A DNA stretch of 64,000 nt, taken from assembly GCA_029259175.1 (NCBI GenBank), contig JAPDJH010000002.1:128673-192672 (forward strand), read 5' to 3'. The position numbers and the translations under genes were made by a program. The notes beneath the pieces were generated by a model. The model was given only the letters and a program-made list of their open reading frames with translations, was not told the DNA's origin and searched no databases. The stretch's first letter is position 1. Each line of letters starts with the position of its first letter. Below are positions 9,943 to 57,348 of the stretch, piece after piece. This DNA is from Hadesarchaea archaeon (lineage in GTDB: Archaea; Hadarchaeota; Hadarchaeia; Hadarchaeales; Hadarchaeaceae).

Positions 9943-11284
9943 ACCCCCGTGCGCTTTGACCATTGCTGGCTCTGATTCTGGCGGCGGTGCGGGAGTTCAG
10001 GCAGATCTTAAAACATTTGCAGCTTTGGGTGTCCATGGTTTGTGTGTTTTAACCTCTGTTACTGCTCAAAACACGCGCGGCGTGCTGGCTATTCATCCGT
10101 TGCCAGCTGGAGCAGTAAAGAAGCAGCTCGAAGCCGTGCTTTCCGATTTTGCTGTGCGTTTCGCGAAAACTGGGATGCTAGCCACGCCCGAGAACATTCG
10201 GGTGATAGAACGCGCTGTCACCCGACACAATTTGCAGTTGGTGGTCGATCCCGTAATGATTTCCACCACTGGTCACCGTCTGATTCAACAAGAAGCTGAA
10301 GAAGAGCTTCTCCGGCTCATTGAGCGCTCCACACTAGTTACCCCGAATGTTTTCGAAGCCCAATTTTTGTCTGGAATAAACATTCACACCGTTAAAGATT
10401 TAGAACGCGCCGCGCGCGAGATCAAACATCGTTTCGGACTTGGAGCAGTGCTAGTAAAAGGAGGCCATCTTTCAAATAGGAAGCTAGCGGTCGACGTGCT
10501 TTTGGTTGGCAGGAAAATCTACCGCTTTAGTTCACCGCGCATAGCTGGCAGATTCCACGGTGCCGGATGTGTGTACTCCGCAGCGATAACAGCGGAATTG
10601 GCAAAAGGTGCGCCCATGGATAGAGCTGTAGAACGCGCGAGAGAATTCATAATCCACGCTTTGGATTCAGCGCTCGAGATAGGAAAGGGTGGTCTCCGGA
10701 CGGTGAACCCACTGGCTCAGCTTTTCCGTCGATTAGCCCAATTGGAGGCAATCGAAGAAATCTGGACGACTGCGAATGAGCTGGTTTCGCACCCCGCGTT
10801 TGTCGATCTTATTCCCGAAGTGGGCACGAACATCGCTGTAGTGTTGCCGGGTGCCCACTCGCTTGAGGATACGGTTGGTTTATCAGGGCGCATAGTTCGA
10901 AGTGGAAGCAAAGCTGTGCTGACCGGCTTTCCACAGCTAGGTGGATCCCAACACGTTGCACGAGCAACACTTACCGCACACCACATCAACCCAGCGATCC
11001 GCGCTGGAATAAACATATGCTTTTCTGAGTCGTTTGTGAAAAAGCTCAAGCAAATGGGCCTATCGGTTTATTCATTCAATCGAAACGCGGAGCCGCCGGG
11101 AGTGAAGACCATGGAATGGGGAATCCGAACAGCACTTCCAAAAAATGTGAAGCCACCGGTGGTGGTGTACGATCGGGGAGGCAAGGGAAAGGAAGCAATG
11201 ATTCGCATTTTTGAAAGCTCTGTAACTCAACTCAAAGCCGTTTTACTCCGTTTGGCAAGCGCCGTTTATAAGCAGCAGAAGTAA
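9920..11284 (+). CDS. thiDN: Bifunctional hydroxymethylpyrimidine/phosphomethylpyrimidine kinase ThiD fused to archaeal ThiN-type thiamine-phosphate synthase domain (ThiDN)
   Basis: The N-terminus ALTIAGSDSGGGAGVQADLKTF is the ThiD signature. The C-terminal ~200 aa is typical of archaeal ThiN fusions. Confidence 0.8.
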   Translation: MKKMSGDRPPCALTIAGSDSGGGAGVQADLKTFAALGVHGLCVLTSVTAQNTRGVLAIHPLPAGAVKKQLEAVLSDFAVRFAKTGMLATPENIRVIERAVTRHNLQLVVDPVMISTTGHRLIQQEAEEELLRLIERSTLVTPNVFEAQFLSGINIHTVKDLERAAREIKHRFGLGAVLVKGGHLSNRKLAVDVLLVGRKIYRFSSPRIAGRFHGAGCVYSAAITAELAKGAPMDRAVERAREFIIHALDSALEIGKGGLRTVNPLAQLFRRLAQLEAIEEIWTTANELVSHPAFVDLIPEVGTNIAVVLPGAHSLEDTVGLSGRIVRSGSKAVLTGFPQLGGSQHVARATLTAHHINPAIRAGINICFSESFVKKLKQMGLSVYSFNRNAEPPGVKTMEWGIRTALPKNVKPPVVVYDRGGKGKEAMIRIFESSVTQLKAVLLRLASAVYKQQK

Positions 11285-12645: not shown

Positions 12646-13623
12646 GCCGTGCAAAGTGGTGCCCCGGCACCGACGCGAAGGAGAACTTTCGAGCGATTAG
12701 TACCGGTGGGCTGAACGCCTCGCCGAAGCTCGGCGCTTACACCCCCGGCCTATCAACGGGGTCTTCTGGCCCCAGCTCGCGCCCCGACCACCCTTTCGGG
12801 CGATCGGAGCAGGGCGCCTAGTCTAGGGGGCTGCTTCGGCCTTAGATGCTTTCAGGCCTTATCAGCTGGCGCGTGGCTACCCGGCCTGCCCTGTCGGACA
12901 GCCGGTACACCAGAGGCGCCGGCCTCCTGTTCCTCTCGTACTAGGGAGACCTTCCCCGCAGGCGCCCTACGCCCCCGGAAGATAGCATCCGACCTGTCTC
13001 GCGACGGTCTAAACCCATCTCACGTTCCCCTTTAACGGGCGAACAACCCTACCCTTGGCCGCTGCTACACGGCCAGGATGGGAAGAGACGACATCGAGGT
13101 AGCAAACCGCGGGGTCGATGGGGACTCTCGCCCGCGACCACTCTGTTATCCCCGGGGTACCTTTTCTGTCATCCGAGGCCCTCACCAATAGGGCACTCGG
13201 GTTCGCTAGGCCCGGCTTTCGCCCCTGCGAGCCTTGGTAGTGAGCTCGCAGTCAGGCCGGCTTATGGCCTTGCCCTCTACGGCGGATTTCTGACCCGCCT
13301 GAGCCGACCTTTGGGCTCCCTTGTTACCTTTTCGAGGGACTGCCGCCCCAGCGAAACTGCCCACCTGCCGCTGTCCCCACTCCCGAGGAGCGGGTTAGAA
13401 ACACAGCACCGGATGGGCGGTGTTACATTGGCGCCTCCACCGGACCCGGAGGCCCGGCTTCGACGGCTCCCGCCTACGCTCTGCACCCGAGGCCGTGTTC
13501 CAACGACAGGCTGCAGTGAAGGTCCACGGGGTCTTCGCTTCCCTCCGGGGGTCCCCGGCATGTTCTGCCGGCCAGTGGGTTCACCGGGTTCCGGGCTGGG
13601 ACAGTGGGGGGCTCGTTGATCCC

Positions 13624-13655
<32 letters not shown>

Positions 13656-13660
13656 TTACG

Positions 13661-14362
13661 CTACCTTAAGCGCCCTTCTCTCGCGCGAGAAGGGTGGACC
13701 GTATCATCGTCCTCTCTCGAGGACGCCCGGCGTACGGTCTCTGAGGATCCTCCCTCAACGAGCCTTCGGAGTTTTTCCTTCTTCTCCGGATGGCGGAAAC
13801 CCACTACTTCTTGAAATCGTCGCACTCGCTGGAATCCTTTGACCACGAGCGACCACTGTGGGTGCTTTCCCCACCCGCGCGCTTTTTTCACCCGTATCGA
13901 ACTCTCGATTCCAGCCGTTCTCAGGATTCGCTGAACCTCTGTGATAACGGGCTTTGCTATCATGTCTATACCGACATAAGGATATGTGTACACCCGCGCG
14001 CCGTGAGTCTGGATGTCGATTCCGCAGTAGCCCTCCGTGTCGAAGAGTCCTCGCACGATTTCGAGTTCCGATTGCTGGTTTCCCAGAAATGCTTTTGGTA
14101 TCTTGGCGGTTGTCAGCTTCCGGCCCTTTGGATAGCCGAGCTTGCGTAGCAATCGGTGAATTTCGCGCTGGTTGGAGGTCACCGCCCAGCAATTGGGTGC
14201 CACTCGGCGCAGGTTTGGTTTTATTCCAAAGATTTGCTCCACCAGTTTTCCACACCGTTCCACGAACTCCCGGTTTCGATCTCTGCAGAACACGGTGTAG
14301 GAGTTCCCGTACACGCCGCCGTCACCGAGCATCACTCCGATCAGATAGGCCAGCGATCCCAT
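13661..14362 (-). CDS. LAGLIDADG homing endonuclease (double-motif, monomeric type)
   Basis: Two LAGLIDADG-like motifs were found, LAYLIGVMLGDGGV and VRGLFDTEGYCG. The ORF runs 3 codons into the downstream exon. Confidence 0.85.
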   Translation of the reverse strand: MGSLAYLIGVMLGDGGVYGNSYTVFCRDRNREFVERCGKLVEQIFGIKPNLRRVAPNCWAVTSNQREIHRLLRKLGYPKGRKLTTAKIPKAFLGNQQSELEIVRGLFDTEGYCGIDIQTHGARVYTYPYVGIDMIAKPVITEVQRILRTAGIESSIRVKKARGWGKHPQWSLVVKGFQRVRRFQEVVGFRHPEKKEKLRRLVEGGSSETVRRASSREDDDTVHPSRAREGRLR

Positions 14363-14531
14363 TGTCTCTCTTTAAGAGGGACTTTGTTACTATTTATGGA
14401 TTTCTCTGGCTCTCGGGAGTTTCCTGCGGGTCGACCTCATCGAGAACGGACCTTGTTACCTCCAACACGGAGGTAGTCCGTTCCCTATACGTCTTCCCCG
14501 CATACAGCCGGGTTTAACGACCCCCTTCGTC
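13670..14531 (-). mobile_element. 23S rRNA intron (archaeal BHB-spliced type) carrying a homing-endonuclease ORF. It is inserted between ...GGGGTAACTCTGACCCTC and TTAAGGTAGCG..., E. coli ~1927 region
   Basis: The exon junction sequences were identified at 14532-14549 and 13659-13669. The intervening ~860 nt contains the LAGLIDADG ORF plus a ~170-nt 5' leader. Confidence 0.65.
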
Positions 14532-16686
14532 GAGGGTCAGAGTTACCCCCGCCCCTTGGCGGCGCTTCGGCCGGCTGAACCCGGCTTTCACGTACCGCCG
14601 GTGGGCAGGATTCAGCTCCCGTACTCACCCTTTCGGGCTCGCGGGAACCTACGTTTTTATTAAACAGTCGGCCCCCCCTTGTCACTGCGACCTGCCTCTC
14701 GCGAGGCAGGCACCCCTTCTACCGAGGCTACGGGGCCAACTTGCCGAGTTCCCTAGCCCGGTGTATCCCGACACGCCTTAGGCTTCTCACCCAGGGGCAC
14801 CTGTGTCGGTTCTAGGTACGGTCACCTGGGATCCCATTTCCCAGCTCCCTTTTCACGGGCCCTAGGGCTCAGCCGAACCCGCCTTTCGGCAGGCCATTCC
14901 CGCCTTCGTCCGGTTCTCTCCGTTACGGAACTCCCCGGACTTGAGCGGTTAGATGGGGCGACGACCCCACTCGGCCTACCCCGAGGCGTCGGGAGCTAGG
15001 CCTTGCGTTGCCGCAGGTACCCAGGTGGCTCCGGAATATTAACCGGATTCCCTTTTGGGTGCCTCTGGTTGAGGGCACCCTTAGGACCGGCTAACCCTAG
15101 GCTGACGACCATTGCCTAGGAACCCGGGCCCCTTCGGCGGCCGGGATTCTCACCCGGCTCTGCTGTTACTACCGCCAGGATTTTCATTCCGACGCGGTCC
15201 ACCAGACCTCACGGCCTGGCTTCTCCCCACGCCGGACGCCCCCCTACCGGATCGGCCTACTATACTTCGGCCGCCCCGGGGTCTCGGTGGCCGGCTTAGC
15301 CCCGAGTATCTTCGGGGCCCCCTCCCTCGGCGGGTCCGCTGTTACGCGTTGTTTAAAGGATGGCTGCTTCTAAGCCTACCTCCCCGCTGTCTGAGGGAGA
15401 GGACGCCCTTTCCGGTAACACTTAGCCGGCACTTGGGGACCTTAACCCCGGTCTGGGTTTTTCCCCTCTCGGAGCGGGAGCTTACCCCCCGCATCCCGTC
15501 TCCGGCGGTCTACGGTGCTGGCGGCTTCGGAGTTCGACAGGCGAGGCGAGGGTTTCCCCCCGTCACTCGCCAATCGGTGCTCTACACCGCCAGCGACCTC
15601 GCGCCGGGCCTGACTGCGGCCAGCTTCGGGGGGAACCAGCTATCACCGGGCTTGATGGGTCTTTCGCCACTAGCCCGGGGTCATCCGACCGGATTGTACA
15701 CCAAGACCGGTTCGGCCCTCCACCGAGCGTACGCTCGGCTTCGGCCTACCCCGGACTAGATCGCCCGGTTTCGGGTCGCCATGCCGTGACTCCGGGCGCT
15801 CTTCACACCCGGCCCCTCGCCCTTTCGGGCTGCGGGCATCTCGCTTTCGCTCCGGCTCCGGGGATCCAACCCCCTTAGCCTCGCCACGGCAAGGCACTCC
15901 CTGGCCCGTGATTCCAGACGGACGGCACGACCCCGATTGGCCTCCCTCGTACTACCGCCTCGCGGCGGGTTCCTTCGGGAGGTCTCATCTCTTTCGAGCC
16001 GTGCCCAACTGTCCCCACCTGGTTTCAGGCTCTTTTCACCCCCCTTCCGGGGTGCTTTTCAGCTTTCCCTCGCGGTACTGTGTTCGCTATCGGTCTCGGG
16101 ACGTATTTAGGGTTGGAAGTTGATGCCTCCCAGCTTCGGACGGCATTTCTAAGCCGCCCTACTCAGGATACCTCTCCTCGTAGCCTGCCCAGTTACGCCT
16201 ACGGGGCTTTCACCCTCTACGGCGCGGCGTTCCAGCCGACTTCGGCTTCCCGGGCGAGGCATTGGGAGAGGTCCTACAACCCCACATCCGCACTCGGTTT
16301 CCCGAGCGCGTTCGGTTTGCCCTGTGCCCCTTTCACTCGCCGTTACTCAGGGCATCGCGATTGCTTTCTTTTCCTCCCGGTACTCCGATGTTTCGTTTCC
16401 CGGGGTTCCCGCTCGCTGCCGCGAGCGCCGGGGTATTGCCCCGGCAGGAGGTCCCATTCGGCGATCCCGGGATCAAAGGCTGCATGCGCCTACCCCGGGC
16501 GTTTCGCCGCTTGCCGCGACCTTCCTCGGCGCCCGAGCCGAGCCATCCCCCAGGTGGGTTCCGGTGTTCTCCCACGAGCCGGCACCGGGAACACTGCCTT
16601 TGCACGGCGGTCATTTCGCAAATGAGCGCGATCCGCCTTCAGTACACGAGCTTTCGGGCTCGCGCACCTCATCCCAAGTGGATATG

Positions 16687-28259: not shown

Positions 28260-29132
28260 GTGATGCACAGCGACAGAAATGCTATAGTTTTAACTTCCGG
28301 TGGTGCAGACAGCATTCCTCTGCTCTACCACGTAGCGAAGAAAATCCGGCCCAGACACGTTATCGCCATCCACGCCGACTACGGTCAGCGGATGGCCGAA
28401 CTCGAGCGTCTCGGCGTTGAAAAGACTGTCGAGCTTTTGTCCAGTAAGGGATATCCAGTCGAGCTGAAAACGGTGAACATCCGGTGGCTCGGAGAGCTTT
28501 CCACCTCCAAGCTTGTTCGGGACGAACCACTGCCCGAAACACCCGTCAATGCCCTTCAAGATCCTGAGGCCGCTTCCAAGCGCATCCTGTGGTGGTGGGA
28601 TGTGGTCCGAAATCTCCAACTGGTCACCATAGGTCTGGCATTCGCGGAGAGTATCGATTTATCGTCCTATCTGCGCACGGGAAGGCGCAACATCTACGAT
28701 GTGTACATTGGGATAAGGCGGGAAACCCCAGTACCCATGAAAGACAACACTCCTGAGTTTGTTGAGCTGATGAATCGTGTTGCAGATCAAGCGACCCATT
28801 TTGGCGGGTACCGAGTTCTAGCTCCGTTCATAACCAAAGACAAAGACGCGGTTATCAAATATGGTGAGGAGCTCGGAGTGCGATGGGAGTTCACGTTCTC
28901 TTGTTATACCAACGTGCGGGTGTGGGAGCGTCACCCTCGGGCCAATATCGAACTACCATTGCACTGCGGATGGTGCTCTAACTGCCGGAGACGAGCTAAA
29001 GCCTTCGTGGATGCTGGTGTGCCGGATCCCACTCTCTATCAGACGCCACCCCTACGGAACACAGAATATGCTCAAATCGGCAAGGCCTACATCCAGCGCG
29101 TTTTCCTCTCAGCCCAGAACCCAGATCAATAG
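28260..29132 (+). CDS. queC: 7-cyano-7-deazaguanine synthase QueC (long form)
   Basis: The PP-loop is LTSGGADS. The C-terminal Zn site is HCGWCSNCRRR. Confidence 0.75.
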   Translation: MMHSDRNAIVLTSGGADSIPLLYHVAKKIRPRHVIAIHADYGQRMAELERLGVEKTVELLSSKGYPVELKTVNIRWLGELSTSKLVRDEPLPETPVNALQDPEAASKRILWWWDVVRNLQLVTIGLAFAESIDLSSYLRTGRRNIYDVYIGIRRETPVPMKDNTPEFVELMNRVADQATHFGGYRVLAPFITKDKDAVIKYGEELGVRWEFTFSCYTNVRVWERHPRANIELPLHCGWCSNCRRRAKAFVDAGVPDPTLYQTPPLRNTEYAQIGKAYIQRVFLSAQNPDQ

Positions 29133-31061
29133 TAAAGACGCGATCGTGAAAACCACACTCGAGAGCACCGCGGACTTTGCCACCAGCGACCACAATTCGA
29201 CACTGTCTCCCGGCGCCTTGATCACGGCGATATATCGGGCAATCACGGCCGAAAGCAATATGCTGGTCAGTCCCATAACTAAGCGCAGCAGAGAGAGTTC
29301 TGCGGCCTCCATCGCACCAATCATGAGCGGAACCCCTGCAACACCGGCAGCAGACATCTGAGCAGCGAGCGTGTACTTCATTCCCGACATGAAATTCATC
29401 ACCCACACAGCCATTGCACACACCACCGGAATGAGAACTACTGACACGAGCCAGAGATTGCTCATCGCCTCATCAATACGTTCTCTAAACCTGCGTTCCA
29501 CACGCTGCAGCGTTCGGAGAAACTCCGCCGCCAGCATGCAAGCTCTTCCGGCTGCGGCTTCGTTGTCTCGTCTTATTCGAGAAATTATGTGGAGAAACCC
29601 TGCTATGACCGGATTGTAACGCTGGCGATGCACGATGGCCTCTTTCATGTTCATGCCGAATTCGTTCATACGCGAGCTTGCACCTTTCAGTTCGCTGGCT
29701 AGCGGCGACCCCTCCATGAGTTCTGCAGCCTCCACCATCGCGACCTGAGCCGGCTTTCCATCTAGCATTCTGGATCCAATCGTATTCAGAGCGTTTGCCC
29801 AATCCGAGACTTTTCTTCGTTCCTCATCGCGCGCCGCTCGTCTGTTCCTCGCGTACGCGTATCCATACACTCCGAGAGCTGCTCCGACTCCCCATACTAG
29901 CCACATGGTGGAAAAGCTCAGTGCGATTTGTCCCACCACTCCTTCTCTCACTCCGACCAAGTAGAGGACCCCAGGCCACCCCAGCGCCAGAAAACACACA
30001 AGTAGGATCACCCAGCTCGGAAACACGCGCGTGCCTATTCGGAGCTTTCCCGGCGGTGGTAAGCGCGGGTCGTCCTTCCAGCTTTCTATGATCTGGACCG
30101 TGGCAGGCCTGTTTCGCTCCATGTAAAGCGTGAACGCCGCAAACGAGACCACGAGAGCAGCAGCGATACCCACGAAAAACTTTAGGTCAACCAGCTGGAC
30201 ACCAATCATGCTGAAAACTGGAGAAAGACCCACAGCTCCGATAATAGCCAGCGATCCAAAGGTTAGAAAGGCTAGAGTGGGCATCACAAGCGAGCCCAGC
30301 TTTTTTGTGAGTTGTTCTTCCGATCCCTCGAGCACACGGTTGGGCGCTTTAGCGATATCCATGATTCGCATGCTTTCGTCCTTTGTACCCGAGGATCGGA
30401 GAATGTCGAAGATGGCTTGGCGCACATTGTCATCAATCTCGCCCCATTCATTCGCTACAGACACCAACAAATGACGCACGGTTTCAAAGCGTCTCCGCTC
30501 ATCGAGTTCAAAAAGTCCCCGTTGCAAATCCTCCGCCAGTTTTCCTTCGCTGGCATCGGCAGCGTAGACCGTGGCTCCTCGGAGATCTGGTTTGTGGTAG
30601 AGGAAAAAGCTCAACAACATAACGGTGTTTATAGCCAGACTCTGTGCCTGTGCCCTGCGCGTAGAAGCCCGCACGGAGGGGTAGAGCTGAAAGACCAGCC
30701 CACTTAGACCTCCGAGCACCGACCCGAGTATTGGGAGATACAGAGTCTCTAACAGATCCCCTGATACGAGCCAGAGTATGAGAAAGGGGAGTATGGGCAG
30801 AAAAAAACTGAACAGCATCCCTGCTGCCCACTCTTCGTCACTCAGCTGCAGTCCTGAGTCTTTCAGATCTTTTTTCGTTCGTTCGCTAACTCGGTACTCG
30901 CGTACCAAAGCTCCAATGATTTTCCTCGCAAATCTGCAAAACTTCTCATAAAGGGTGTGTCGGCGTTTTGCTTTTTTTCTCTCGAAAACCCTGCGAACAT
31001 CCTCTGGTATCGGAAACTCTGTTGGAAGGGACTCTATTGTTTTTTCAGCCAAGCGCGCCAC
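29109..31061 (-). CDS. Type II secretion system F-domain polytopic membrane protein (FlaJ/TadC-like pilus-assembly platform)
   Basis: The 650-aa product has three TM clusters separated by two cytoplasmic domains of ~150-170 aa, which is FlaJ/TadC topology. It overlaps the upstream secretion ATPase gene. Confidence 0.55.
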   Translation of the reverse strand: MARLAEKTIESLPTEFPIPEDVRRVFERKKAKRRHTLYEKFCRFARKIIGALVREYRVSERTKKDLKDSGLQLSDEEWAAGMLFSFFLPILPFLILWLVSGDLLETLYLPILGSVLGGLSGLVFQLYPSVRASTRRAQAQSLAINTVMLLSFFLYHKPDLRGATVYAADASEGKLAEDLQRGLFELDERRRFETVRHLLVSVANEWGEIDDNVRQAIFDILRSSGTKDESMRIMDIAKAPNRVLEGSEEQLTKKLGSLVMPTLAFLTFGSLAIIGAVGLSPVFSMIGVQLVDLKFFVGIAAALVVSFAAFTLYMERNRPATVQIIESWKDDPRLPPPGKLRIGTRVFPSWVILLVCFLALGWPGVLYLVGVREGVVGQIALSFSTMWLVWGVGAALGVYGYAYARNRRAARDEERRKVSDWANALNTIGSRMLDGKPAQVAMVEAAELMEGSPLASELKGASSRMNEFGMNMKEAIVHRQRYNPVIAGFLHIISRIRRDNEAAAGRACMLAAEFLRTLQRVERRFRERIDEAMSNLWLVSVVLIPVVCAMAVWVMNFMSGMKYTLAAQMSAAGVAGVPLMIGAMEAAELSLLRLVMGLTSILLSAVIARYIAVIKAPGDSVELWSLVAKSAVLSSVVFTIASLLLIWVLG

Positions 31062-33226
31062 TCTCCGAGTACTCGCTTGATATGGGGACCGTGCTGTTTG
31101 AGCAACGTGAAGTACACACCGTAGGCTTTGCTAACAAACGGAAGCTCAAGCACTTCTGGTTTCTGTTTGGAAAGCTGAAGCAGGTCGGACTTCACCCGGG
31201 CTTCCAAGAGTAGTTGTTTCAAGAAGTCGTCATCCTTGATGCCCAGTCTTCTGCATAGCTCAGGGATCAGGTGACTACCACCACGGCTGGGTGGAGCGAA
31301 TCGCACTTTTTTCGCCGTTTTGGAGAGGTCAAGTTTGGAAAGGTCGAAGGAGTTGAGCTGTTTTATTAGCCGTCTATCTCCGACGAGCAAGTTTTTCACC
31401 AATAGCAAATCCCGGCTCCGATCGTCTGCGAATAGTTCTACGTAACGCGGCTCTTCTCTCCAGTCCTTCCGCACTTCTGCGATCTCAACGATACGCCTGA
31501 TGGTACCACTGGGCGTCGAGAACCGGGCCGTGCTGACAATCAAGTCGATATAACGAAAAGCGGCTTCGTGCAGGCCCATAATGTGCACAACGAGATCGAA
31601 AACCTCTCTCTTACTGCGCGCGTGAAAACTCGCCACCACAGGCTGGGAGCCTTGACGAGCAGCAGCACCGAGCGCTGCACGAACGGCAGATGCCTCCCGG
31701 ACTTCCGTGATGAGCCAGTAGCTGGCTCCTCCGCGCAAAAACGCGTTGATTTGCCTTTCCAAGTGCTCTGGATCAGATATTCTAACATTTGCGATTTTGT
31801 AGCCGTGTTGTAGGAACTCCTCCACATGGAGTTCTTCGGTATCTTGGAAGGTCACTATGCGGTGTTGAGGTCCGATTTCCGGAATGTATGTCTCGACTTG
31901 TGATGTTTTTGCCGTTCCCATCTCCCCGATAACGAACACGCTAGATCCAAGTCTTAACACATTGCTGAGAAACGAACTAGCCAAGGGGGTGAGCGTGCGT
32001 CGGGAAAGGAAAAGCGGCTGGGTCCAAGGATTCGATCTCCGCTTGCGAACTGCCAGCTCAACGCTGCGTGCCCATATGGCGGGGTATCGGCTGAGAAACA
32101 GCCTCATGCCCAGCTCCGGAATCTCGGCGTCAAGCTGCGGCCTCACTTCGTCGAAGGAACTGCCGAGTCTTGAGGCCAGCACCTCTCCCAAACCAAGCAC
32201 CGAGGGCGTGTCCCAGCGTATTCCGGTCTCTAGCTTGCCCCATCGCTCGTGCTCTACGTATATGGGTTGGAGCTCTGGCGGAGCCGAGACATAGATATCA
32301 GTGATATAATCGTCGTAAGCGAAGGGATCGAGCACACGATAGGTGAGCCACCGAGCGATCATGTTGGCGAGTCTCTCTATTTGGTCATTTGAAATTTGGA
32401 GTTTTTTCTCCTTCAGCAGATGGAGGAGCACCAAATACCAGTCCTGCGCAAATGAGAACATCCGGTCTGAATATGCAAAACGTGCATGACCCGGCGCCTC
32501 CTCGAGCTTGTAATTGAACGCACGATATAACAGAGCCAGCTGATCCGAAGGAAGCTTAAACTCTGGTAGCTCAAGCTCGTAGAATCCTACGGGGTTGTCA
32601 GGGCGCTCGTAGATCTTCACTATCCCGCGGTTTTCCCGGAGCTTGTAGCTATCGATCAGCTTCGCGTTTTTCGGCGGCGTGCTCCACACGCCTTCAACGA
32701 AAAAGGGCTTTTGTCTTTCCTCAAAAACTCTCGGGTAGGAGTCTTCGTTCAATTCTTTCAAAAACTTGAGGGGTGCAAAGAGACCGTTCAACACCCGCAA
32801 CAGTTTCGCCAAGTGTTTTTCAACACACTCTCTACATTTTTTCGTGTTTTCACGCGGTTTTAATCGCAACATTTGTTTAAGTTCTCTGGCCCGATGAGGA
32901 TTTCTCTCGATTTCGGCGAATACCCGGAGTAGCTTTTCCTTTTGTTCGCGAATACACTCCCGGCACCGTTTGGAGGGTGCTGATGGATAGTACGATTCGT
33001 CCAGCACCGTTCGCTTCGCTCGGGCTATGGTGTGGGCCAAGACGGATAGTCTCTCGGTGCAGAACACGTGTGTGACGGGAGCACGTAGGACTACTTGGTG
33101 AACGGGTGGCTGGGTTTCTAGCTCCTTCAGAACAGCTGCTCGAACATTTGGGTTTTCAAGCGAGGCTTCTACTCCTTCAAACACAGCAACTTTGAGAGGC
33201 CCAGAGTCCTTTATCTCGACGCGCAT
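31034..33226 (-). CDS. Type II/IV secretion-system ATPase (FlaI/VirB11/TadA family), unusually long with N-terminal Cys-repeat extension
   Basis: There is a P-loop-like GEMGTAKTS and an Asp box RIVTFQDTEEL. Duplicated KRCRECIREQKEKLLRV / KKCRECVEKHLAKLLRV modules lie near the N-terminus. Confidence 0.7.
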   Translation of the reverse strand: MRVEIKDSGPLKVAVFEGVEASLENPNVRAAVLKELETQPPVHQVVLRAPVTHVFCTERLSVLAHTIARAKRTVLDESYYPSAPSKRCRECIREQKEKLLRVFAEIERNPHRARELKQMLRLKPRENTKKCRECVEKHLAKLLRVLNGLFAPLKFLKELNEDSYPRVFEERQKPFFVEGVWSTPPKNAKLIDSYKLRENRGIVKIYERPDNPVGFYELELPEFKLPSDQLALLYRAFNYKLEEAPGHARFAYSDRMFSFAQDWYLVLLHLLKEKKLQISNDQIERLANMIARWLTYRVLDPFAYDDYITDIYVSAPPELQPIYVEHERWGKLETGIRWDTPSVLGLGEVLASRLGSSFDEVRPQLDAEIPELGMRLFLSRYPAIWARSVELAVRKRRSNPWTQPLFLSRRTLTPLASSFLSNVLRLGSSVFVIGEMGTAKTSQVETYIPEIGPQHRIVTFQDTEELHVEEFLQHGYKIANVRISDPEHLERQINAFLRGGASYWLITEVREASAVRAALGAAARQGSQPVVASFHARSKREVFDLVVHIMGLHEAAFRYIDLIVSTARFSTPSGTIRRIVEIAEVRKDWREEPRYVELFADDRSRDLLLVKNLLVGDRRLIKQLNSFDLSKLDLSKTAKKVRFAPPSRGGSHLIPELCRRLGIKDDDFLKQLLLEARVKSDLLQLSKQKPEVLELPFVSKAYGVYFTLLKQHGPHIKRVLGEWRAWLKKQ

Positions 33227-51168: not shown

Positions 51169-51245
51169 GCGGAGGTAGCTCAGGCTGGGAGAGCGTCGGA
51201 CTGAAGATCCGAGTGTCGGGGGTTCAAATCCCCCCCTCCGCACCA
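51169..51245 (+). tRNA. tRNA-Phe (anticodon GAA), CCA encoded
   Basis: GCGGAGGTAGCTCAGGCTGGGAGAGCGTCGGACTGAAGATCCGAGTGTCGGGGGTTCAAATCCCCCCCTCCGCACCA. The cloverleaf was checked by hand. Confidence 0.9.
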
Positions 51246-51311: not shown

Positions 51312-51530
51312 TCAGAGCAGTTCTACGAACTCTTCCACGGTTATTCCAGCTGCCTTGAGAGTGAGATGCAAGGTCTTCTTTTTCAACGTCCGGTGAAGCG
51401 GCACCGTTAGCTTGATGACGCCCTCCGGAGTCTCTTTTTCCAGCCTCACATGACTGCCTTTTACGACAACAAAACCCGCCCGAGTAAGAGCTTTCACCGT
51501 TTCTGCTCCAGAAACAACTGGTAGCTTCAT
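51312..51530 (-). CDS. hicA: HicA-family toxin (mRNA interferase)
   Basis: MKLPVVSGAETVKALTRAGFVVVKGSHVRLEK... has the HicA fold signature (K-x-L...G...KGSH). Confidence 0.7.
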   Translation of the reverse strand: MKLPVVSGAETVKALTRAGFVVVKGSHVRLEKETPEGVIKLTVPLHRTLKKKTLHLTLKAAGITVEEFVELL

Positions 51531-51548
51531 CCAAATCCTCTGATATCG

Positions 51549-51749
51549 CTACACCGAGATCTCGGCGATCTCCACACCAGCTTTGGGCAACGGCTCCTTG
51601 ATATCCTCCAAATAGAGTTCGATAGCCTCCTTTATGTTGCGAAGCGCCTCCTCACGCGTTTCACCCTGCGACACGCATCCAGGCAGGCTCGGCACGTAAA
51701 CGACGTAACCTTCCTCCTTCGCCCGCTCCAAAACTACCTTGAGCTTCAT
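51549..51749 (-). CDS. hicB: HicB-family antitoxin (UPF0150-like)
   Basis: MKLKVVLERAKEEGYVVYVPSLPGCVSQGETREEALRNIKEAIELYLE matches the HicB N-domain. Confidence 0.65.
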   Translation of the reverse strand: MKLKVVLERAKEEGYVVYVPSLPGCVSQGETREEALRNIKEAIELYLEDIKEPLPKAGVEIAEISV

Positions 51750-52052: not shown

Positions 52053-52757
52053 TCACTCTTCAGCGATCGCTCTTCCACCATATGCGTCGATCACCCGCAC
52101 CACAACGGATCCGTCCTGCTGCCTGATTTCAAAGCGCAACCACTCGCACGCGAAGTTCTCGTTTAGCTCGCGCTCGAACCCCTCCAAGTCGGCAACGCTT
52201 TGAGCCAAGTCGTACACCCGGTAGGCGATGTGGTGCAGCCTCCCGTAGCGCGGAACCACGCCCGCGTCCAGCTGGATGCCAAACGCTCGCACACCGCTCG
52301 CGTGCTCGAACTCCGCCGGCAGATAGCCGTAGGCCCTGAGCCCCCCATCGGGGAGCCACTCGAAGCGAAGCGTGTTCTCGGAGGTGAGCGGCACGCTGAT
52401 GTCGAAACCCGTGTACTCCCACCCCATCGCGATGCGCTCGTTGATGTACTGGCGGGCACGCACTTCCACCTGGGCCTTGTCCTCTCCGCGGCGCCCGCTC
52501 TCATACATGGCGGCTTGGATCACGGTGCGGAGGGCCTCGTTGAGTTCCGTCTGGACGGCCGATGCCATGGCTTTGGTCGTGTCGGTCACCATCGCCTGGT
52601 GCAGAATGGAGAGTTCGGACTCGTACCCGCGAGCGAAGGTCTGGACCGCCAAGTAGGAGGACAAGATAACGAAGACCGTGAAAACAGCAAGAGACGCAGC
52701 AGCACCGCGTTGCTCAGAGAGGGTAGAGTGAGACACGCGCTTCCACCTGCGCCACAT
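52053..52757 (-). CDS. Pilin-like protein E: N-terminal ...SEQRG|AAASLAVFTVFVILSSYLAV (candidate class III signal peptide) plus ~200-aa extracellular domain
   Basis: An [DE][EQ]RG motif immediately precedes a hydrophobic helix. This gene is last in a five-gene co-oriented GC-rich cluster. Confidence 0.45.
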   Translation of the reverse strand: MWRRWKRVSHSTLSEQRGAAASLAVFTVFVILSSYLAVQTFARGYESELSILHQAMVTDTTKAMASAVQTELNEALRTVIQAAMYESGRRGEDKAQVEVRARQYINERIAMGWEYTGFDISVPLTSENTLRFEWLPDGGLRAYGYLPAEFEHASGVRAFGIQLDAGVVPRYGRLHHIAYRVYDLAQSVADLEGFERELNENFACEWLRFEIRQQDGSVVVRVIDAYGGRAIAEE

Positions 52758-53202
52758 GGTTTTCGGCCTCCGCTATCACCAAGGTCACGGTTCCACTAAA
52801 CACGTATTCGTCTCCCGAGGGTGCCGAGTTCTCCGGAACCGTCTGGACCCACAAGCGGTTCTCAAACCGGAGCTCGACACGCGCCCCGTGCTCAGGCGGG
52901 CAAAGGAAGTCCAGAGCCCTGGAAAGTTCTTCGCGTATAACGGATCCCGGGACTGCCGGCTCCCCGATGTCCAGGAGGTTCTCGGCGATGGCACGGAAGA
53001 AAGACACCGAGTAGTTCTCCGGCTGGGCCAGCTCCAGCGCGTGGTAGAGATAGGACGTCTGCAGCTGCAGCTGGCGAGAAGCGACTGCGGGGAGCGCGGT
53101 GAAGCCGAAGCTGTGCAGATAGGCTCCGGCGAGCACCAAGAGCACCAGCATGAGAGTAACCGCGATCGCGTCTGATACCCCGCGCTGGTCTACGCTCGCC
53201 AC
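52714..53202 (-). CDS. Pilin-like protein D: GTG start giving (M)ASVDQRG|VSDAIAVTLMLVLLVLAGAYL
   Basis: It carries the same DQRG-hydrophobic pattern. The track ORF (to 53319) has a spurious N-terminal extension. Confidence 0.45.
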   Translation of the reverse strand: MASVDQRGVSDAIAVTLMLVLLVLAGAYLHSFGFTALPAVASRQLQLQTSYLYHALELAQPENYSVSFFRAIAENLLDIGEPAVPGSVIREELSRALDFLCPPEHGARVELRFENRLWVQTVPENSAPSGDEYVFSGTVTLVIAEAENHVAQVEARVSLYPL

Positions 53203-53612
53203 ACCTGCACCTCCAGCACTCCGGGAACCAGTTTCGTGTTGTCGAAGACCGCAACGGGGAGCGAGAGCGCTGCTACAGGCGTATCGGGCGGAACAGAATC
53301 CCCGTGGCTCGCCGACCACCCATCCAGCGTGCTTATCTGGACACAGAAACTGTAGTTCTCCTGACCCACGCCAACGAGTTCCGGGAGCTGGTCGAGGCGG
53401 GAGGGATCCACGGCGTACTCAACCGTGTTTCCGCCAGCGGTGTACGCCAGCTCGTTGAGAGCCAAATGGTTGGCAATGCTGGAACACGCGTCGGCGAGTT
53501 TAGCGGTGGAGAGCCCCACCCGATAGCTGGAATAAGCGGACACGAGCAGCGCTAAGAAGACCACCACGAGCAGAGCGACCACAATTGAACGGAAGATGCG
53601 CACTAGGTCCAC
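53190..53612 (-). CDS. Small membrane-anchored protein C (N-terminal TM RIFRSIVVALLVVVFLALLVSA, no RG motif)
   Basis: There is a candidate GTG start at 53612 overlapping the upstream gene's stop by 10 nt. The long N-terminal extension in the track (Ser/Arg-rich) is probably not real. Confidence 0.4.
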   Translation of the reverse strand: MDLVRIFRSIVVALLVVVFLALLVSAYSSYRVGLSTAKLADACSSIANHLALNELAYTAGGNTVEYAVDPSRLDQLPELVGVGQENYSFCVQISTLDGWSASHGDSVPPDTPVAALSLPVAVFDNTKLVPGVLEVQVWRA

Positions 53613-53956
53613 GTGACCACCAGCCGGTTGGCTTGGAGTTCCACCTTCAGCTCGTGCTGACCAGCGGGTACGGGCGCGAGATTGTCGGCGAAGGGCAGAG
53701 GCACTTCGGCTTGTTTGTGATCGATCAGAATGAGGTTGTCGACGAAGTGCATGGTGTAGCCGGACGGGACGGTGATGTTTTCGGTGCGGGAGCCCCCGAA
53801 ATCCGCCACTTGCTGGCAGAGCTCCGACACCCGAAGTAGTGCTTCGGTAGCTGCCTGATCGGCCATCAGAGACTGAAAAACCAAGACTCCGAAGGAGCCC
53901 ACAGACACCGCAAAGAGCGAGAGAACCACCAGAGCCAAGGTTTTGAGGGCTGGCAT
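53603..53956 (-). CDS. Small membrane-anchored protein B (MPALKTLALVVLSLFAVSVGSFGVLVF...)
   Basis: There is one TM helix plus a ~90-aa domain. The start lies 5 nt after gene A's stop. Confidence 0.45.
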   Translation of the reverse strand: MPALKTLALVVLSLFAVSVGSFGVLVFQSLMADQAATEALLRVSELCQQVADFGGSRTENITVPSGYTMHFVDNLILIDHKQAEVPLPFADNLAPVPAGQHELKVELQANRLVVTWT

Positions 53957-53961
53957 GGAAA

Positions 53962-54417
53962 CTACTCAAGGGTAAGCTGTAGTTTTGCGAATGACTCGGT
54001 TCCGTCTGCTCCAGTTGCCTTAATGGTGATTGTGGTTGGACCGGAGAGTGCGGTGTTGTCCACACGTATGATAAGAGTGGATCCAAATGGAGGATCGCCG
54101 CTGGCCGGAGAGAAGCCAACGCTTACTCCAGAGGGTGTGCCGCTTGCAGAGAGAGTCACTGTTTGGTCGTAATCGCCAATTTCCTCCACGCTGACTTCGA
54201 GGTTCACCTCATTCTCACCCGAGTCCGGGATGCCCACGACCAAGCTATAGGAGGTCTGACCCTCGATCGATACGCTGAAGGAGAGAAGCTGCCGGGCCCC
54301 CTTGGAAGCCCACCCGTACACGCCGTAAGCGATTCCCAGTCCGATAACGAGCAGAACGATTCCGGCGAAGAGCTTCATGGCTAGGGGCTCGACTCCGCGC
54401 TCGTCCACGAAGAACAC
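53962..54417 (-). CDS. Pilin-like protein A: (GTG start) MFFVDERG|VEPLAMKLFAGIVLLVIGLGIAY plus C-terminal Ig-like/CARDB-like beta domain
   Basis: A DERG motif is present. The C-terminus reads TVTLSASGTPSGVSVGFSPASG...TTITIKATGADGTESFAKLQLTL, an Ig-like pattern. A TTTTAAA TATA lies ~25 nt upstream on the minus strand. Confidence 0.5.
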   Translation of the reverse strand: MFFVDERGVEPLAMKLFAGIVLLVIGLGIAYGVYGWASKGARQLLSFSVSIEGQTSYSLVVGIPDSGENEVNLEVSVEEIGDYDQTVTLSASGTPSGVSVGFSPASGDPPFGSTLIIRVDNTALSGPTTITIKATGADGTESFAKLQLTLE

Positions 54418-54461
54418 CTGTAGAATTTTGGCTGCGTGGGTTTAAAACTGGAGCGGTCGGG

Positions 54462-54483
54462 AACTACACACCCCTGTGTAGCT
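54462..54483. repeat. 22-bp hairpin inverted repeat, copy 1 (AACTACACA-CCCC-TGTGTAGCT; 1 mismatch), ~15 bp upstream of the pilin-operon TATA
   Basis: This was read directly from the sequence. It lies between the HTH gene stop (54493) and the gene A promoter. Confidence 0.85.
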
Positions 54484-54492
54484 GACCTGCCG

Positions 54493-54789
54493 CTAGAGCC
54501 GAATCCCGAGCTTTCTGAGATCTGAGATGTGGCGGCGCATTTCGAATCGAAGGATTTCCTTCACCCTTTCTGGGCCTAAGCGCCATGCCTCCTCGAGTAG
54601 CTTGACCGCGGCGGTGTTGCTGGGGGTGTGCAGATCGCTCCGAATCCAATTCACGACGGCTTGAACGCTGACACCGCAGAGGCCAGCAATTTCAGAAGGC
54701 CTGTATTTTTCCAGCAGGAGTTGCAACAGAGACATCCGGGCCCAGCGGCTGAGGCGCTCCGCTGCCGGGAACCATTTGGCGGGCTTCAC
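54493..54789 (-). CDS. Small helix-turn-helix DNA-binding protein (98 aa), candidate regulator
   Basis: The HTH reads LLLEKYRPSEIAGLCGVSVQAVVNWIRS, with a GTG start. A TTTAAAAG TATA sits ~30 nt upstream on the minus strand, with IR copy 2 ~16 bp beyond it. Confidence 0.5.
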   Translation of the reverse strand: MKPAKWFPAAERLSRWARMSLLQLLLEKYRPSEIAGLCGVSVQAVVNWIRSDLHTPSNTAAVKLLEEAWRLGPERVKEILRFEMRRHISDLRKLGIRL

Positions 54790-54844
54790 GGTTCTCGCCT
54801 CTCCTTTAGATGGGGGTTGCTTTTAAACGGAAAAACGGGAGCAT

Positions 54845-55202
54845 AACTACACACCCCTGTGTAGTTCCAAAGCGAAAACAACCGCAGTTCTATCTGCTCC
54901 GAGGGGTTGAAGCCAGCTACGCGCTTCCGCATAGTAACTACACACCCCTGTGTAGTTCAGGGAGAAACAACAGCAATTTTATTCTCCTCCGAGGGGAACC
55001 AGCTACGCGCTTCCGCATAGTCTGCAAAAACCTTCTGGCTTCACCATGTGATGTACAACTACACACCCCTGTGTAGTTCCAAGACGTAACCAACCGTAGC
55101 TCTATTCTCATTTAGCTAAAGTCAGCTACACACCCCTGTGTAGCCAGCAGGGGCCGACCTCGCTCCACTGCGCGAATCTGCAACTACACACCCCTGTGTA
55201 GT
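54845..55202. repeat. Array of five further copies of the 22-bp hairpin repeat AACTACACACCCCTGTGTAGTT (54845-54866, 54936-54957, 55056-55077, 55123-55144 [variant AGCTACACACCCCTGTGTAGCC], 55181-55202), all same orientation, with partially conserved ~30-nt sequence after each
   Basis: The copies were counted by eye. Spacings are 69, 98, 45 and 36 nt. The flank after copies 2 and 3 shares ctcctccgagggg...ccagctacgcgcttccgcatagt. The array ends 43 nt before the nrdJ ATG. Confidence 0.85.
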
Positions 55203-55245: not shown

Positions 55246-57348
55246 TTGGACCCCATGCCTATTGAGAAAGTGCAAAAAAGAGACGGCCGAATTGTCGATT
55301 TCGACCAGCGCCTGATCACCGACGCCATCCACCGCGCCTTCATAGCAGCCCAACAGCCCGACAGAAAGCGTGTCAAAAAGCTCTCCGACCGCGTCGTGCG
55401 TGCCCTCGAGCGCAAATTCCGCAACCGCGTACCGAGCGTCGAGCAGATCCAAGACACCGTCGTCCAAGTCCTCCAGCGCTCCGGCTATCCAGAGATAGCC
55501 CGCGAGTACCAGCGTTACCGCAAGCAGAAGGCCGAGCTCCGCCGCCTTCGCCACCAGTTCGGCCTCGACGCTGAGCCAAAACTAACCGCAAACGCCCTCG
55601 AGGTCCTCCGCCGCCGCTACCTAAGACGCGACGAGCGCGGAAAAATCGTAGAGACCCCTGCCCAGCTCTTCAGCCGAGTAGCCAAGGCGATCGCATCCGT
55701 GGAGCGTCGCTACGGCCAGAAACCCCAGCCCCTCTACGAGCGCTTTTTCCGAGTCCTCAGCCGCCTCGAGTTTCTCCCCAACTCTCCCACCCTCTTCAAC
55801 GCTGGGACCCCGCTCGGCCAGCTCAGCGCTTGCTTCGTCCTGCCCGTGGAGGACAGCCTCACAAGCATCTTCGATACTGTCAAACACACCGCTTTAATCG
55901 AGCAGACCGGCGGGGGTGTGGGCTTCAGCTTCTCACGCCTGCGCCCAGCCGGCGATGTGGTGCGCTCCACCAGCGGTGTTGCATCGGGACCGCTCTCCTT
56001 CATGCGCGTTTTCGACACGGTGACCGATGTAATCAAAGCCGGCGGAAAGCGCAGGGGTGCCATGATGGGTGTGCTCAGCATCGATCATCCGGACGTGGAG
56101 CAGTTCATCACCGCCAAATCCGATCCCCAGAACCTCACCAACTTCAACCTCTCCGTCGCTGTCACCGACCGCTTCATGCGCGCAGTGCTCCGCGGATCGA
56201 CTCACTCGCTTGTGAACCCCCGCACTGGCCGAACCGTGCGCCGCGTCCAGGCCCGCAAGCTCTGGAACCTCATCGTCCGCAGCGCCTGGCGCACCGGGGA
56301 CCCGGGCCTGCTCTTCATCGACGAGATCAACCGGCACAATCCCACCCCTGCGCTCGGCCGCATCGAGGCCACCAACCCGTGTGGCGAAATCCCCCTCCTC
56401 CCCTACGAGTCATGCAACCTCGGAAGCATCAACCTGAGCCGGATGGCCGCTCCCGTGCGCGACGGGTGGGAGCTCGACTGGGACAAGCTCAGAGAGACCG
56501 TGCGCCTCGGCGCCCACTTCCTCGACAACGTCATCGATGCCAACCGCTACCCGCTCCCCCAGATCGAGCGCGCCACGCGCGCCACCCGCAAGATAGGTCT
56601 TGGAGTGATGGGATGGGCCGAACTCCTCATCAAGCTCGGAATCCCCTACGATTCGCCCCAGGCCGTCCGCCTTGCTTCCCGCCTCATGCGCTTCGTCTCT
56701 CGCCATGCCCGCGAGCGGTCCCGCGAGCTGGGCGAGGAGCGCGGCTCTTTTCCCGCTTTCTCCCAGAGCCGCTGGGCGTCCCGCTTCTCAGCGCTCCGGA
56801 ACGCCACAGTTACCGCTATCGCCCCCACTGGCAGCATCTCGATCATCGCCGGGTGCTCGTCCGGAATCGAGCCGCTCTTCGCGGTGGTCTTCATGCGGCG
56901 CGTTTTGGACGGGAGCCGCCTGCTCGAAATCAACCCCCTCTTCGAGCTCACCGCAAAGAGGCGCGGTTTTTACAGCGCCGAGCTGCTCCGGCGCATCGCT
57001 CGCAGGGGATCCATTCGCGGAGTCCGAGAGATCCCTTCCGATGTGCAGGAGCTCTTCGCGACCGCCCTAGACATCGACTCGAAATGGCACGTCCGAATGC
57101 AAGCGGCCTTTCAGCGCTATACGGACAACGCCGTATCTAAAACCATCAACCTCCCGCCAGATGCGGCGCCCTCCGATGTGGAGCGTGCCTTCATGCTCGC
57201 GTGGCGGCTCAAGTGCAAGGGCATCACCGTGTACCGCTACGGGAGCAAGCCGCAACAAGTCCTCTACGTGGGAGGTCCGGGTTATCTCGAGGCAGAAGCG
57301 GAGTACGCTGGGGGGTGCATGACGGGTACGTGTCCCTTCCCAGGGTGA
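55246..57348 (+). CDS. nrdJ: Class II (adenosylcobalamin-dependent) ribonucleotide reductase with N-terminal ATP-cone
   Basis: The ATP-cone reads KVQKRDGRIVDFDQRLITDAI. The active-site region is NPCGEIPL, and the C-terminal tail is CMTGTCPFPG. Confidence 0.85.
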   Translation: MDPMPIEKVQKRDGRIVDFDQRLITDAIHRAFIAAQQPDRKRVKKLSDRVVRALERKFRNRVPSVEQIQDTVVQVLQRSGYPEIAREYQRYRKQKAELRRLRHQFGLDAEPKLTANALEVLRRRYLRRDERGKIVETPAQLFSRVAKAIASVERRYGQKPQPLYERFFRVLSRLEFLPNSPTLFNAGTPLGQLSACFVLPVEDSLTSIFDTVKHTALIEQTGGGVGFSFSRLRPAGDVVRSTSGVASGPLSFMRVFDTVTDVIKAGGKRRGAMMGVLSIDHPDVEQFITAKSDPQNLTNFNLSVAVTDRFMRAVLRGSTHSLVNPRTGRTVRRVQARKLWNLIVRSAWRTGDPGLLFIDEINRHNPTPALGRIEATNPCGEIPLLPYESCNLGSINLSRMAAPVRDGWELDWDKLRETVRLGAHFLDNVIDANRYPLPQIERATRATRKIGLGVMGWAELLIKLGIPYDSPQAVRLASRLMRFVSRHARERSRELGEERGSFPAFSQSRWASRFSALRNATVTAIAPTGSISIIAGCSSGIEPLFAVVFMRRVLDGSRLLEINPLFELTAKRRGFYSAELLRRIARRGSIRGVREIPSDVQELFATALDIDSKWHVRMQAAFQRYTDNAVSKTINLPPDAAPSDVERAFMLAWRLKCKGITVYRYGSKPQQVLYVGGPGYLEAEAEYAGGCMTGTCPFPG

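Follow-up and report, generated by a model that had tools for sequence, protein, structure and literature searches.

Known archaeal type IV pilus loci bring together an ATPase with a TadC-like protein and a number of pilins, the latter in some cases encoded in trans (PMC4858521). The closest described systems are the archaeal type IV pili of clade 4, especially 4C and 4F, together with PilB4-type loci of euryarchaea, which Makarova, Koonin and Albers described in 2016 and Sivabalasarma and Albers re-modelled in 2026 (PMC4858521; bioRxiv 10.64898/2026.04.22.720090). These loci encode one ATPase, one platform protein, and several small class III-signal proteins per operon. The same plan is found in Hadarchaeota around a cassette of five genes, here named A to E, that occupies positions 52053-54417 on the minus strand of the window, i.e., the whole 64,000-nucleotide (nt) stretch of Hadesarchaea contig JAPDJH010000002.1 that was analysed. 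With a probability of roughly 0.75, A-E code for the filament and assembly subunits of a type IV filament (TFF) machine that is very divergent and specific to Hadarchaeota, and whose presumed motor and platform genes lie elsewhere in the window and next to the cassette in related genomes.

The ORF (open reading frame) list of the window contains the five genes as co-oriented, tightly packed frames, and gene calls on near-identical public contigs return the same boundaries, with proteins of 148, 117, 140, 162, and 234 amino acids (aa), in agreement with the first-pass annotation of this DNA, which had described five co-oriented minus-strand genes for proteins of 117-234 aa with one N-terminal helix each. 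Gene A (53962-54408 or -54417, minus strand) codes for 148 aa from the GTG at 54408 or for 151 aa from the GTG at 54417, and its product, the candidate major filament subunit, consists of a leader ending in DERG, a hydrophobic helix, and an immunoglobulin (Ig)-like beta-sandwich. Gene B (53603-53956, minus strand) codes for 117 aa starting with MPALKTLALVVL, with no Gly/Ala/Ser cleavage-type site; gene C (53190-53612, minus strand) for 140 aa with the leader M-D-L-V-R-I-F-R-S and a hydrophobic stretch directly after it; and gene D (52714-53202, minus strand) for 162 aa with the leader MASVDQRG. Gene E (52053-52757, minus strand) codes for 234 aa from its ATG or 227 aa from the GTG at 52736, and its SEQRG leader is followed by a very long helix and an alpha/beta domain. 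A gap of 5 nt separates A from B, while the other neighbours overlap, by 10 nt (B/C), 13 nt (C/D), and 44 nt (D/E, or 23 nt should E begin at the GTG at 52736), and GGAGGTG stands 5 nt upstream of the GTG start of gene D. This tight packing suggests that A-E form one transcription unit. Each of the five proteins has one N-terminal hydrophobic helix and homologues at 40-70% identity (46 were counted for A, 34 for C, and 38 for E), and tblastn finds the five genes in the same order at every locus with sufficient sequence. Within the window, each family is single-copy, with no paralogues; C and D, considered as paralogues of each other, show no profile similarity (hhalign probability 5%), and this relation was dropped.

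The assignment of the cassette to a filament machine relies primarily on its position in other genomes. The gene order ATPase-platform-A-B-C-D-E, usually followed by a glutamine synthetase gene, is found in 10 non-redundant Hadarchaeota loci, with the ATPase gene directly upstream of the platform gene and A-E in nine of them (the ATPase gene of L010 being partial) and only the end of the platform gene in L016. In the relatives, the platform gene is always located between the ATPase gene and gene A, and the two proteins of the relatives (about 740 aa for the ATPase and about 660 aa for the platform) are 57-64% identical to those of the window. The cassette proteins are only 40-60% identical among the 10 loci, and their order and tight spacing are still kept. 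This recurrent position of A-E immediately behind both genes in 10 loci links them to the ATPase/platform machine and strongly supports the initial proposal of surface-filament (pilin-like) subunits that work with a distant ATPase/platform pair.

In the window, the presumed motor is encoded on the minus strand at 31034-33226, about 19 kb from the cassette (first put at 20 kb), and is a protein of 730 aa of the FlaI/TadA/VirB11 family. Its gene end is overlapped by the gene of a polytopic membrane protein (29109-31061, minus strand; 650 aa, about 10 hydrophobic segments), the presumed TadC/FlaJ-like platform, a role that we infer from position and topology. Judged by its sequence matches, the 730-aa protein is a member of the secretion ATPase superfamily (FlaI/TadA/GspE/VirB11). 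Specifically, a phmmer search against the PDB retrieves FlaI (4ii7, 1.2e-16, residues 295-609), a GspE-like protein (2oap, 1.1e-11) that we take to be from A. fulgidus, CpaF (2.2e-9), and VirB11 (1.5e-5), and the protein contains a Walker B-like LITEVR and a His-box FHA. In NCBIfam, the protein matches FlaI (6.8e-25), the TadA family (6.5e-14), and BasE (1.2e-10), but all three matches are far under the equivalog cut-offs, FlaI reaching 87.8 bits where 550 are required, and Pfam gives no hit, T2SSE included. The protein also has an extra N-terminal region of about 290 residues with four Cys, arranged as two CxxC pairs (residues 88-134) that are kept in 8 of 9 homologues. As 4F ATPases often have an extra N-terminal Cys-rich region (PMC4858521), the four conserved Cys recall subclade 4F in this feature.

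The ATPase, platform, and glutamine synthetase genes are adjacent in the window as well, with the cassette missing between them. A QueC-like gene (28260-29132, plus strand), which runs 24 nt into the platform gene at its 3' end, is located between the platform and glutamine synthetase genes, exactly where most relatives have the cassette. Since the three genes are still neighbours and the QueC-like gene stands at the place of the cassette, the cassette is, on gene order, relocated away from its motor genes in the lineage of the window. It is detached also in L005, L006, L009, L018, L024, and L025, and it moves as one block of five, and the separability of an ATPase/platform module and a pilin set in the genome is again shared with the clade 4-type loci. 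Other departures from the common arrangement are found at single loci. Just upstream of the ATPase gene, L007 (3416-3658) and L008 (3870-4088) have an extra paralogue of the Ig-like domain of gene A (about 32% identity); duplication is a habit of major pilin genes (PMC4858521). L020 contains only the C-terminal half of gene E (10001-10354), beside glutamine synthetase, with neither A-D nor a cognate ATPase nearby and a sole ATPase match that is 23% identical, and looks like the remnant of a lost cassette. In L006, a short deletion at 1240-1290 removes most of the hydrophobic helix of gene A and shifts the frame (MKIFSE followed by a stop), which makes this copy a pseudogene or an assembly error.

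The N-termini of the cassette proteins provide the second line of evidence. An archaeal class III leader is short, with Gly or Ala, sometimes Ser, at position -1 and a positive charge at -2, and the criteria for the site stress positions -2, -1, and +1 (PMC3387779). In the window, A (DERG↓V), C (IFRS↓I), D (DQRG↓V), and E (EQRG↓A) have a site of this form (the arrow marks the predicted cut), and B does not. The [DE][EQ]RG motif that the first-pass annotation noticed just before the helix is present in A ((MFFV)DERG↓VEPLAMKLFAGIVLLVIGL), D (MASVDQRG↓VSDAIAVTLMLVLLV), and E (...SEQRG↓AAASLAVFTVFVIL), but the count of three such proteins rises to four, as the class III-type RIF[KR][AS] site of C (MDLVRIFRS↓IVVALLVVVF) had been missed. 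Among the sequences with an intact N-terminus, the -1 residue is Gly in all homologues of A (30/30), D (16/16), and E (21/21) and Ala or Ser in C, while Lys or Arg occupies -2 in 22 of 30 A, 14 of 16 C, 14 of 16 D, and 10 of 21 E sequences. The site is also kept in diverged cassettes, both in gene A (MEKIG↓IEPLA, MENKG↓IEPLA) and in genes D (ME[RG]G↓[IL]A[ED]V) and E (MKG↓S, AKG↓S). A relaxed class III rule, i.e., [KR][GAS] in the first 32 residues and, within 8 residues, an 18-residue stretch with a mean hydropathy of at least 2.0, was applied to all six frames of the window. Besides A, C, D, and E, it retrieves only helices inside a LysE transporter and a single antisense ORF. In these four proteins, about 20 hydrophobic residues follow the leader, and the most hydrophobic 18-residue stretch within 8 residues of the site has a Kyte-Doolittle mean of 2.2-3.0.

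The conservation of these N-termini also bears on the start codons. G-V-E-P of gene A is invariant across 30 sequences, upstream of an internal ATG, with synonymous variation of the Gly, Val, Glu, and Pro codons between genomes; G[VI]SD of gene D is kept in 14/14 close homologues; and the R, I, F, and K codons of the RIF[KR][AS] site of gene C vary synonymously as well, so that this leader site is conserved at the protein level. Gene B, in turn, keeps its ATG start and MPA[LM][RK] in 14/14 close homologues. Protein-level conservation with synonymous codon changes indicates that the leaders of A, D, and C are translated and argues that the GTG starts of A and D, on which the motif had depended from the beginning, are in use. 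The internal ATG at 54381 was considered as the start of gene A and rejected, as the GVEPLA upstream of it is invariant and this ATG is a TTG in L013. At gene C, the conserved start position (53610-53612) is GTG in the window and in L006, ATG in L019, and ACG in 11 of 14 homologues (L001, L003, L007-L010, L012-L014, L016, and L018), and gene callers choose downstream starts in L001 and L003. The R-I-F-K codons that follow vary synonymously, so that the leader is translated. This pattern suggests that translation of gene C either begins at ACG, a non-canonical start, or is re-initiated in connection with the stop codon of gene B, which it overlaps.

Predicted structures and family profiles point in the same direction for some of the proteins. 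The AlphaFold2 (AF2) model of the gene A product has a helix at 8-41 and an eight-strand Ig-like sandwich at the C-terminus (predicted local distance difference test, pLDDT, 86), as had been expected for its C-terminal domain, and this modelled architecture corresponds to the plan on which archaeal pilins and archaellins are generally built. The gene A profile aligns over its full length to 8fk7, a 144-residue archaeal filament subunit, at E=0.06. The four best PDB matches of the gene C profile are all archaeal type IV pilins (6w8x, 0.033; 8fjs, 0.043; 6nav, 0.52; 8tib, 0.75). The model of gene E (pLDDT 84) has a helix at 11-90 (80 residues) and a mixed alpha/beta domain to which no known structure is close. 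An N-terminal helix that leads into a globular domain with beta-structure is thus seen in both proteins modelled, A and E. In Pfam, gene C reaches 26.4 bits (E=1.1e-5) against DUF7285 (PF23956), under the gathering cut-off of 27, and PF23956 is listed in a precomputed table for P0148, a protein identical to C; at E<=0.1, DUF7285 is found in 5/16 C homologues and 2/16 D homologues. Gene D touches Pilin_N (PF07790) at 16 bits (E=0.023; cut-off 25.2), 1 of 16 D homologues matches this family at E<=0.1, and Pilin_N does not match A, B, C, or E. Gene B has no Pfam, NCBIfam, or PDB match, and PDB profile searches with B, D, and E return nothing meaningful. A search with the gene C family profile for haloarchaeal DUF7285 proteins returned only Hadarchaeota-type proteins, and a literature search by the DUF names yielded no paper.

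Set against the described systems, the Hadarchaeota loci resemble clade 4 also in the weak link of C and D to DUF7285/DUF7289, which are presumably haloarchaeal families. Unlike the clade 4 and PilB4 loci, their ATPase and platform escape Pfam T2SSE and T2SSF, and their five families are of Hadarchaeota type only. Specifically, a hidden Markov model (HMM) of gene E, run against 1.84 billion representative proteins, retrieves 41 proteins, those with an assigned organism being Hadarchaeota, and all five families are found only in Hadarchaeota or metagenome contigs, with every organism-assigned homologue in Hadarchaeota. The 2016 census of Makarova reportedly predates Hadarchaeota genomes. Hadarchaeota are mentioned neither in this census nor in the 2026 survey (PMC4858521; bioRxiv 10.64898/2026.04.22.720090). 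The complex layout of clade 1, with two TadC proteins, EppA, MinD, and adhesins (PMC4858521), is not shared by the Hadarchaeota loci.

With the PilA1-6 pilins of Haloferax volcanii (Pilin_N, formerly DUF1628), the cassette shares an acidic/basic leader that ends in R-G/A and precedes a conserved hydrophobic helix. The N-terminal motif of PilA/Pilin_N, R-[GA]-V-S-P, is echoed by D, which has V-S at +1/+2, and by A, which has Pro at +3. The likeness to haloarchaeal PilA that was first proposed thus holds at the level of the motif but not of the family, as only D touches Pilin_N, below its cut-off, and A and E give nothing; moreover, PilA1-6 are stand-alone paralogues with a shared hydrophobic domain, whereas the Hadarchaeota proteins are five unrelated single-copy families in fixed order. 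The crenarchaeal pilins 6w8x, 8fjs/8fk7, and 6nav, which we take to be from Pyrobaculum arsenaticum, Saccharolobus, and S. islandicus, respectively, have the same size (about 130-145 aa) and the same N-terminal helix and beta-sandwich as the A model and are the best PDB matches of the C and A profiles, but the E-values are only 0.03-0.7, and when the A model is used for fold searches, the top ranks go to generic Ig-like domains and not to these pilins. The bacterial minor (pseudo)pilins (GspH-I-J-K; FimU-PilV-W-X) are similar in that some four distinct pilin-like proteins of low copy number are encoded together, as a fixed group, beside the machinery, and differ in that there is no sequence homology, the leaders of the cassette are of archaeal type with no Glu at +5, and the likeness of E is mostly its long helix. 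Finally, in the Sulfolobus bindosome assembly system (BasEF and BasABC), the ATPase is likewise FlaI-like and is accompanied by a membrane protein and by a few small proteins with class III signals, which may form a short structure instead of a long pilus; BasE is among the ATPase matches, far weaker than FlaI, and no substrate-binding proteins with class III signals are seen near the loci.

In the proposed machine, the precursors would insert into the membrane by the N-terminal helix, and a class III signal (prepilin) peptidase encoded elsewhere would cut after the Gly, Ala, or Ser. The ATPase, acting via the platform, would then lift the processed subunits from the membrane into a helical filament with the N-terminal helices as its core. 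Gene A likely codes for the main subunit, being the first gene of the cassette, with a helix and one Ig-like domain, and duplicated in some relatives, while C, D, and E would be low-copy subunits that start or cap the filament, and B is probably an uncleaved membrane-anchored accessory protein. The first reading as a minor-pilin operon is therefore kept as regards pilin-like subunits and is amended in that A may be the major subunit. The product could be a pilus, long and adhesive, or else a pseudopilus, short and of the type found in bindosome or secretion systems.

Several observations weigh against this proposal. With regard to the machinery, the Walker A motif of the ATPase, GEMG[TS]AKTS (GEMGTAKT at residues 434-441 in the window), has Ala for the second Gly in 9/9 Hadarchaeota homologues. 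The platform has no Pfam, NCBIfam, PDB sequence, or profile match, also with a nine-sequence profile, and no similarity to T2SSF, TadC, or FlaJ; T2SSF usually occurs twice, and hhalign finds no internal repeat. An A24 prepilin peptidase is found neither in the window nor by a crude motif scan of the 442 kb of window and related loci. With regard to the subunits, B lacks a class III-type site, only 10 of 21 E homologues have the basic -2 residue, and A has Glu at +2 and Lys at +7 ahead of its hydrophobic run, which begins only at +8, after VEPLAMK. The FlaFind motif is [KRDE][GA][ALIFQMVED][ILMVTAS]x3, and this strict pattern fits E only; the mismatches are Glu and Pro at +2/+3 in A, Asp at +3 in D, and Ser at -1 in C. 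Nothing in Pfam or NCBIfam matches A-E above cut-off, every pilin-family match being below it. Lastly, to our knowledge, no filament or surface structure is known in any Hadarchaeota.

Some of these peculiarities could instead be features of the system, although this bolder proposal is a tentative one and we regard it as rather doubtful. The seven genes might represent a compact type IV filament subtype beyond the modelled archaeal classes, with a non-canonical Walker A (GxxxxAKT), a platform without recognisable T2SSF, four leaders that are acidic at -3/-4 and often lack a basic -2, which would call for a peptidase of unusual specificity, and a gene E alpha/beta domain without structural relative, gene C maybe being ACG-started in most genomes. 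Its function (adhesion, uptake, or contact with a syntrophic partner) would be specific to these subsurface archaea.

The strongest of the competing explanations, though unlikely, keeps A-E in the same ATPase machine as scaffold or stator parts, like FlaF/FlaG or PilN/PilO/GspL/GspM, with the true pilin encoded elsewhere. The lack of a cleavage-type site in B and the E model, in which the membrane helix extends as an 80-residue helix that leads to an alpha/beta domain in a PilN/PilO-type layout, would suit such parts, as would the lack of a pilin Pfam family above cut-off and the fact that major archaeal pilins are often stand-alone genes (PMC4858521). However, in four of the five proteins, a conserved Gly or Ala/Ser stands precisely where the hydrophobic stretch begins, behind a short, mostly basic leader, which scaffolds do not need, gene A has the typical layout of an archaeal pilin, and the gene C profile matches archaeal pilins first. 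Much less probable is the explanation that A-E are ordinary anchored or secreted surface proteins whose adjacency to the ATPase is incidental. No curated pilin family gives a significant match, and the cassette stands alone in the window as well as at six or more further loci, yet it always moves as a block of five, and its order and tight spacing behind the ATPase and platform genes persist in 10 loci with only 40-60% identity; moreover, the conserved leader sites would be left unexplained. Least probable of all is a part of an archaellum. Although the ATPase matches FlaI best in both PDB and NCBIfam, its score stays far below the FlaI model cut-off, the ATPase has the long Cys-containing N-terminal region, no FlaH/KaiC-like ATPase, archaellin, FlaF, or FlaG is among the family calls in or beside any locus, and archaellum operons have the reverse of the order ATPase, platform, small genes.

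In the window lineage, the relocated cassette probably has a TATA-like promoter of its own, under the control of a helix-turn-helix (HTH) protein encoded next to it that would bind a palindrome upstream of both promoters. The HTH gene (54493-54789, minus strand) codes for 98 aa with an HTH_23 match (E=3.4e-6; 27.1 bits, above the cut-off of 24.6) and is the candidate regulator of its own gene and of A-E. Upstream of gene A, a TATA-box-like TTTTAAA (54441-54447, minus strand), the putative promoter element, is centred about 27 nt before the GTG at 54417, which would fit a leaderless or near-leaderless gene A transcript. The palindrome CTACACA-GGGG-TGTGTAG (minus-strand reading; 54464-54481), the candidate operator, is located 16 nt upstream of this TATA-like box, just past the HTH stop, and the promoter region of the HTH gene itself (54821-54864, minus strand) has a similar architecture, with the palindrome at 54847-54864, 19 nt upstream of TTTAAAA (54821-54827). 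Four more copies (54938-54955, 55059-55076, 55126-55143, and 55184-55201) lie between the HTH and ribonucleotide reductase genes, giving six exact 18-nt copies in the same orientation, all within 54464-55201 and none elsewhere in the window, where 0 are expected by chance. The four extra CTACACACCCCTGTGTAG copies are embedded in degenerate repeats of 58-121 nt that share a second motif, CCAGCTACGCGCTTCCGCATAGT (x2), and the last copy is about 45 nt upstream of the ribonucleotide reductase start (55246-57348, plus strand).

A comparable arrangement exists in L006, where a 65%-identical HTH homologue is encoded directly upstream of gene A, CTAAACAGGGGTGTTTAG stands at the corresponding places in three copies (CTAAACA-GGGG-TGTTTAG), each followed after 15-21 nt by a TATA-like box, and the TTTTTAA upstream of gene A is the equivalent of the TATA-like box of the window. 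From the window to L006, C:G changes to A:T on both arms of the palindrome, which is thus preserved, and this compensatory change agrees with a dimeric operator evolving in step with its regulator. The palindrome may alternatively act as an RNA hairpin instead of an operator. A role as the terminator of the HTH gene is unlikely, given that there is no T-run and that the same element with the same spacing precedes the TATA-like box of the HTH gene itself. It is therefore plausible that the HTH protein controls A-E in this sub-lineage via the palindrome CTACACAGGGGTGTGTAG. The control by the adjacent HTH protein proposed in the first-pass annotation is thus retained for this sub-lineage but does not extend to most relatives: in the majority of Hadarchaeota that have the seven-gene operon, such an HTH gene is missing there, and HTH control would, on the comparison of these loci, be a local addition that came with the relocation.

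The remaining neighbours of the cassette were correctly recognised from the start, i.e., the tRNA-Phe gene (51169-51245, plus strand) and, between it and the cassette, the hicB/hicA toxin-antitoxin pair (51312-51749, minus strand). The hicB/hicA stretch has a lower guanine-plus-cytosine (GC) content of 52%, and the pair is present in near-identical contigs; in L005 and L006, the gene calls downstream of gene E include no HicA/HicB family. The cluster had been singled out as GC-rich, and it is indeed richer (60.4%) than the 20-48 kb stretch (53.7%), but the flanking housekeeping genes are as high or higher (62.2% for GatD and 63.5% for ribonucleotide reductase), so that the high GC is regional and not specific to the cluster, and a horizontal-transfer island suggested by GC was rejected for the same reason. 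The window also contains an archaeal rRNA operon with tRNA-Ala in the spacer, GatD/GatE, and TiaS. Its 23S rRNA gene (12678-16574, minus strand) has 3897 nt against the 2987 positions of the Rfam model, and an ORF inside it (13661-14362, minus strand) matches LAGLIDADG_3 (E=3e-16), which looks like an rRNA intron with a homing endonuclease.

Hadarchaeota are widespread, mostly uncultured subsurface archaea, and a 2024 study of cultured members reports that no type IV pilin is encoded (PMC11297162), which implies that routine annotation misses such genes. Indeed, as none of the seven genes has a Pfam hit above threshold, routine annotation labels them all hypothetical. Nothing is overturned by the present locus, as type IV filament systems are already known to be near-universal and fast-evolving in archaea, and the system is a lineage-specific, very divergent form of a well-known kind that is not surprising in principle. 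As filament subunits, however, A-E and their two partners would provide families that archaeal filament models (MacSyFinder, arCOG, Pfam) could add and a natural case of a pilin set uncoupled from its motor under a dedicated regulator, and they would give Hadarchaeota a concrete candidate for attachment or cell-cell contact.

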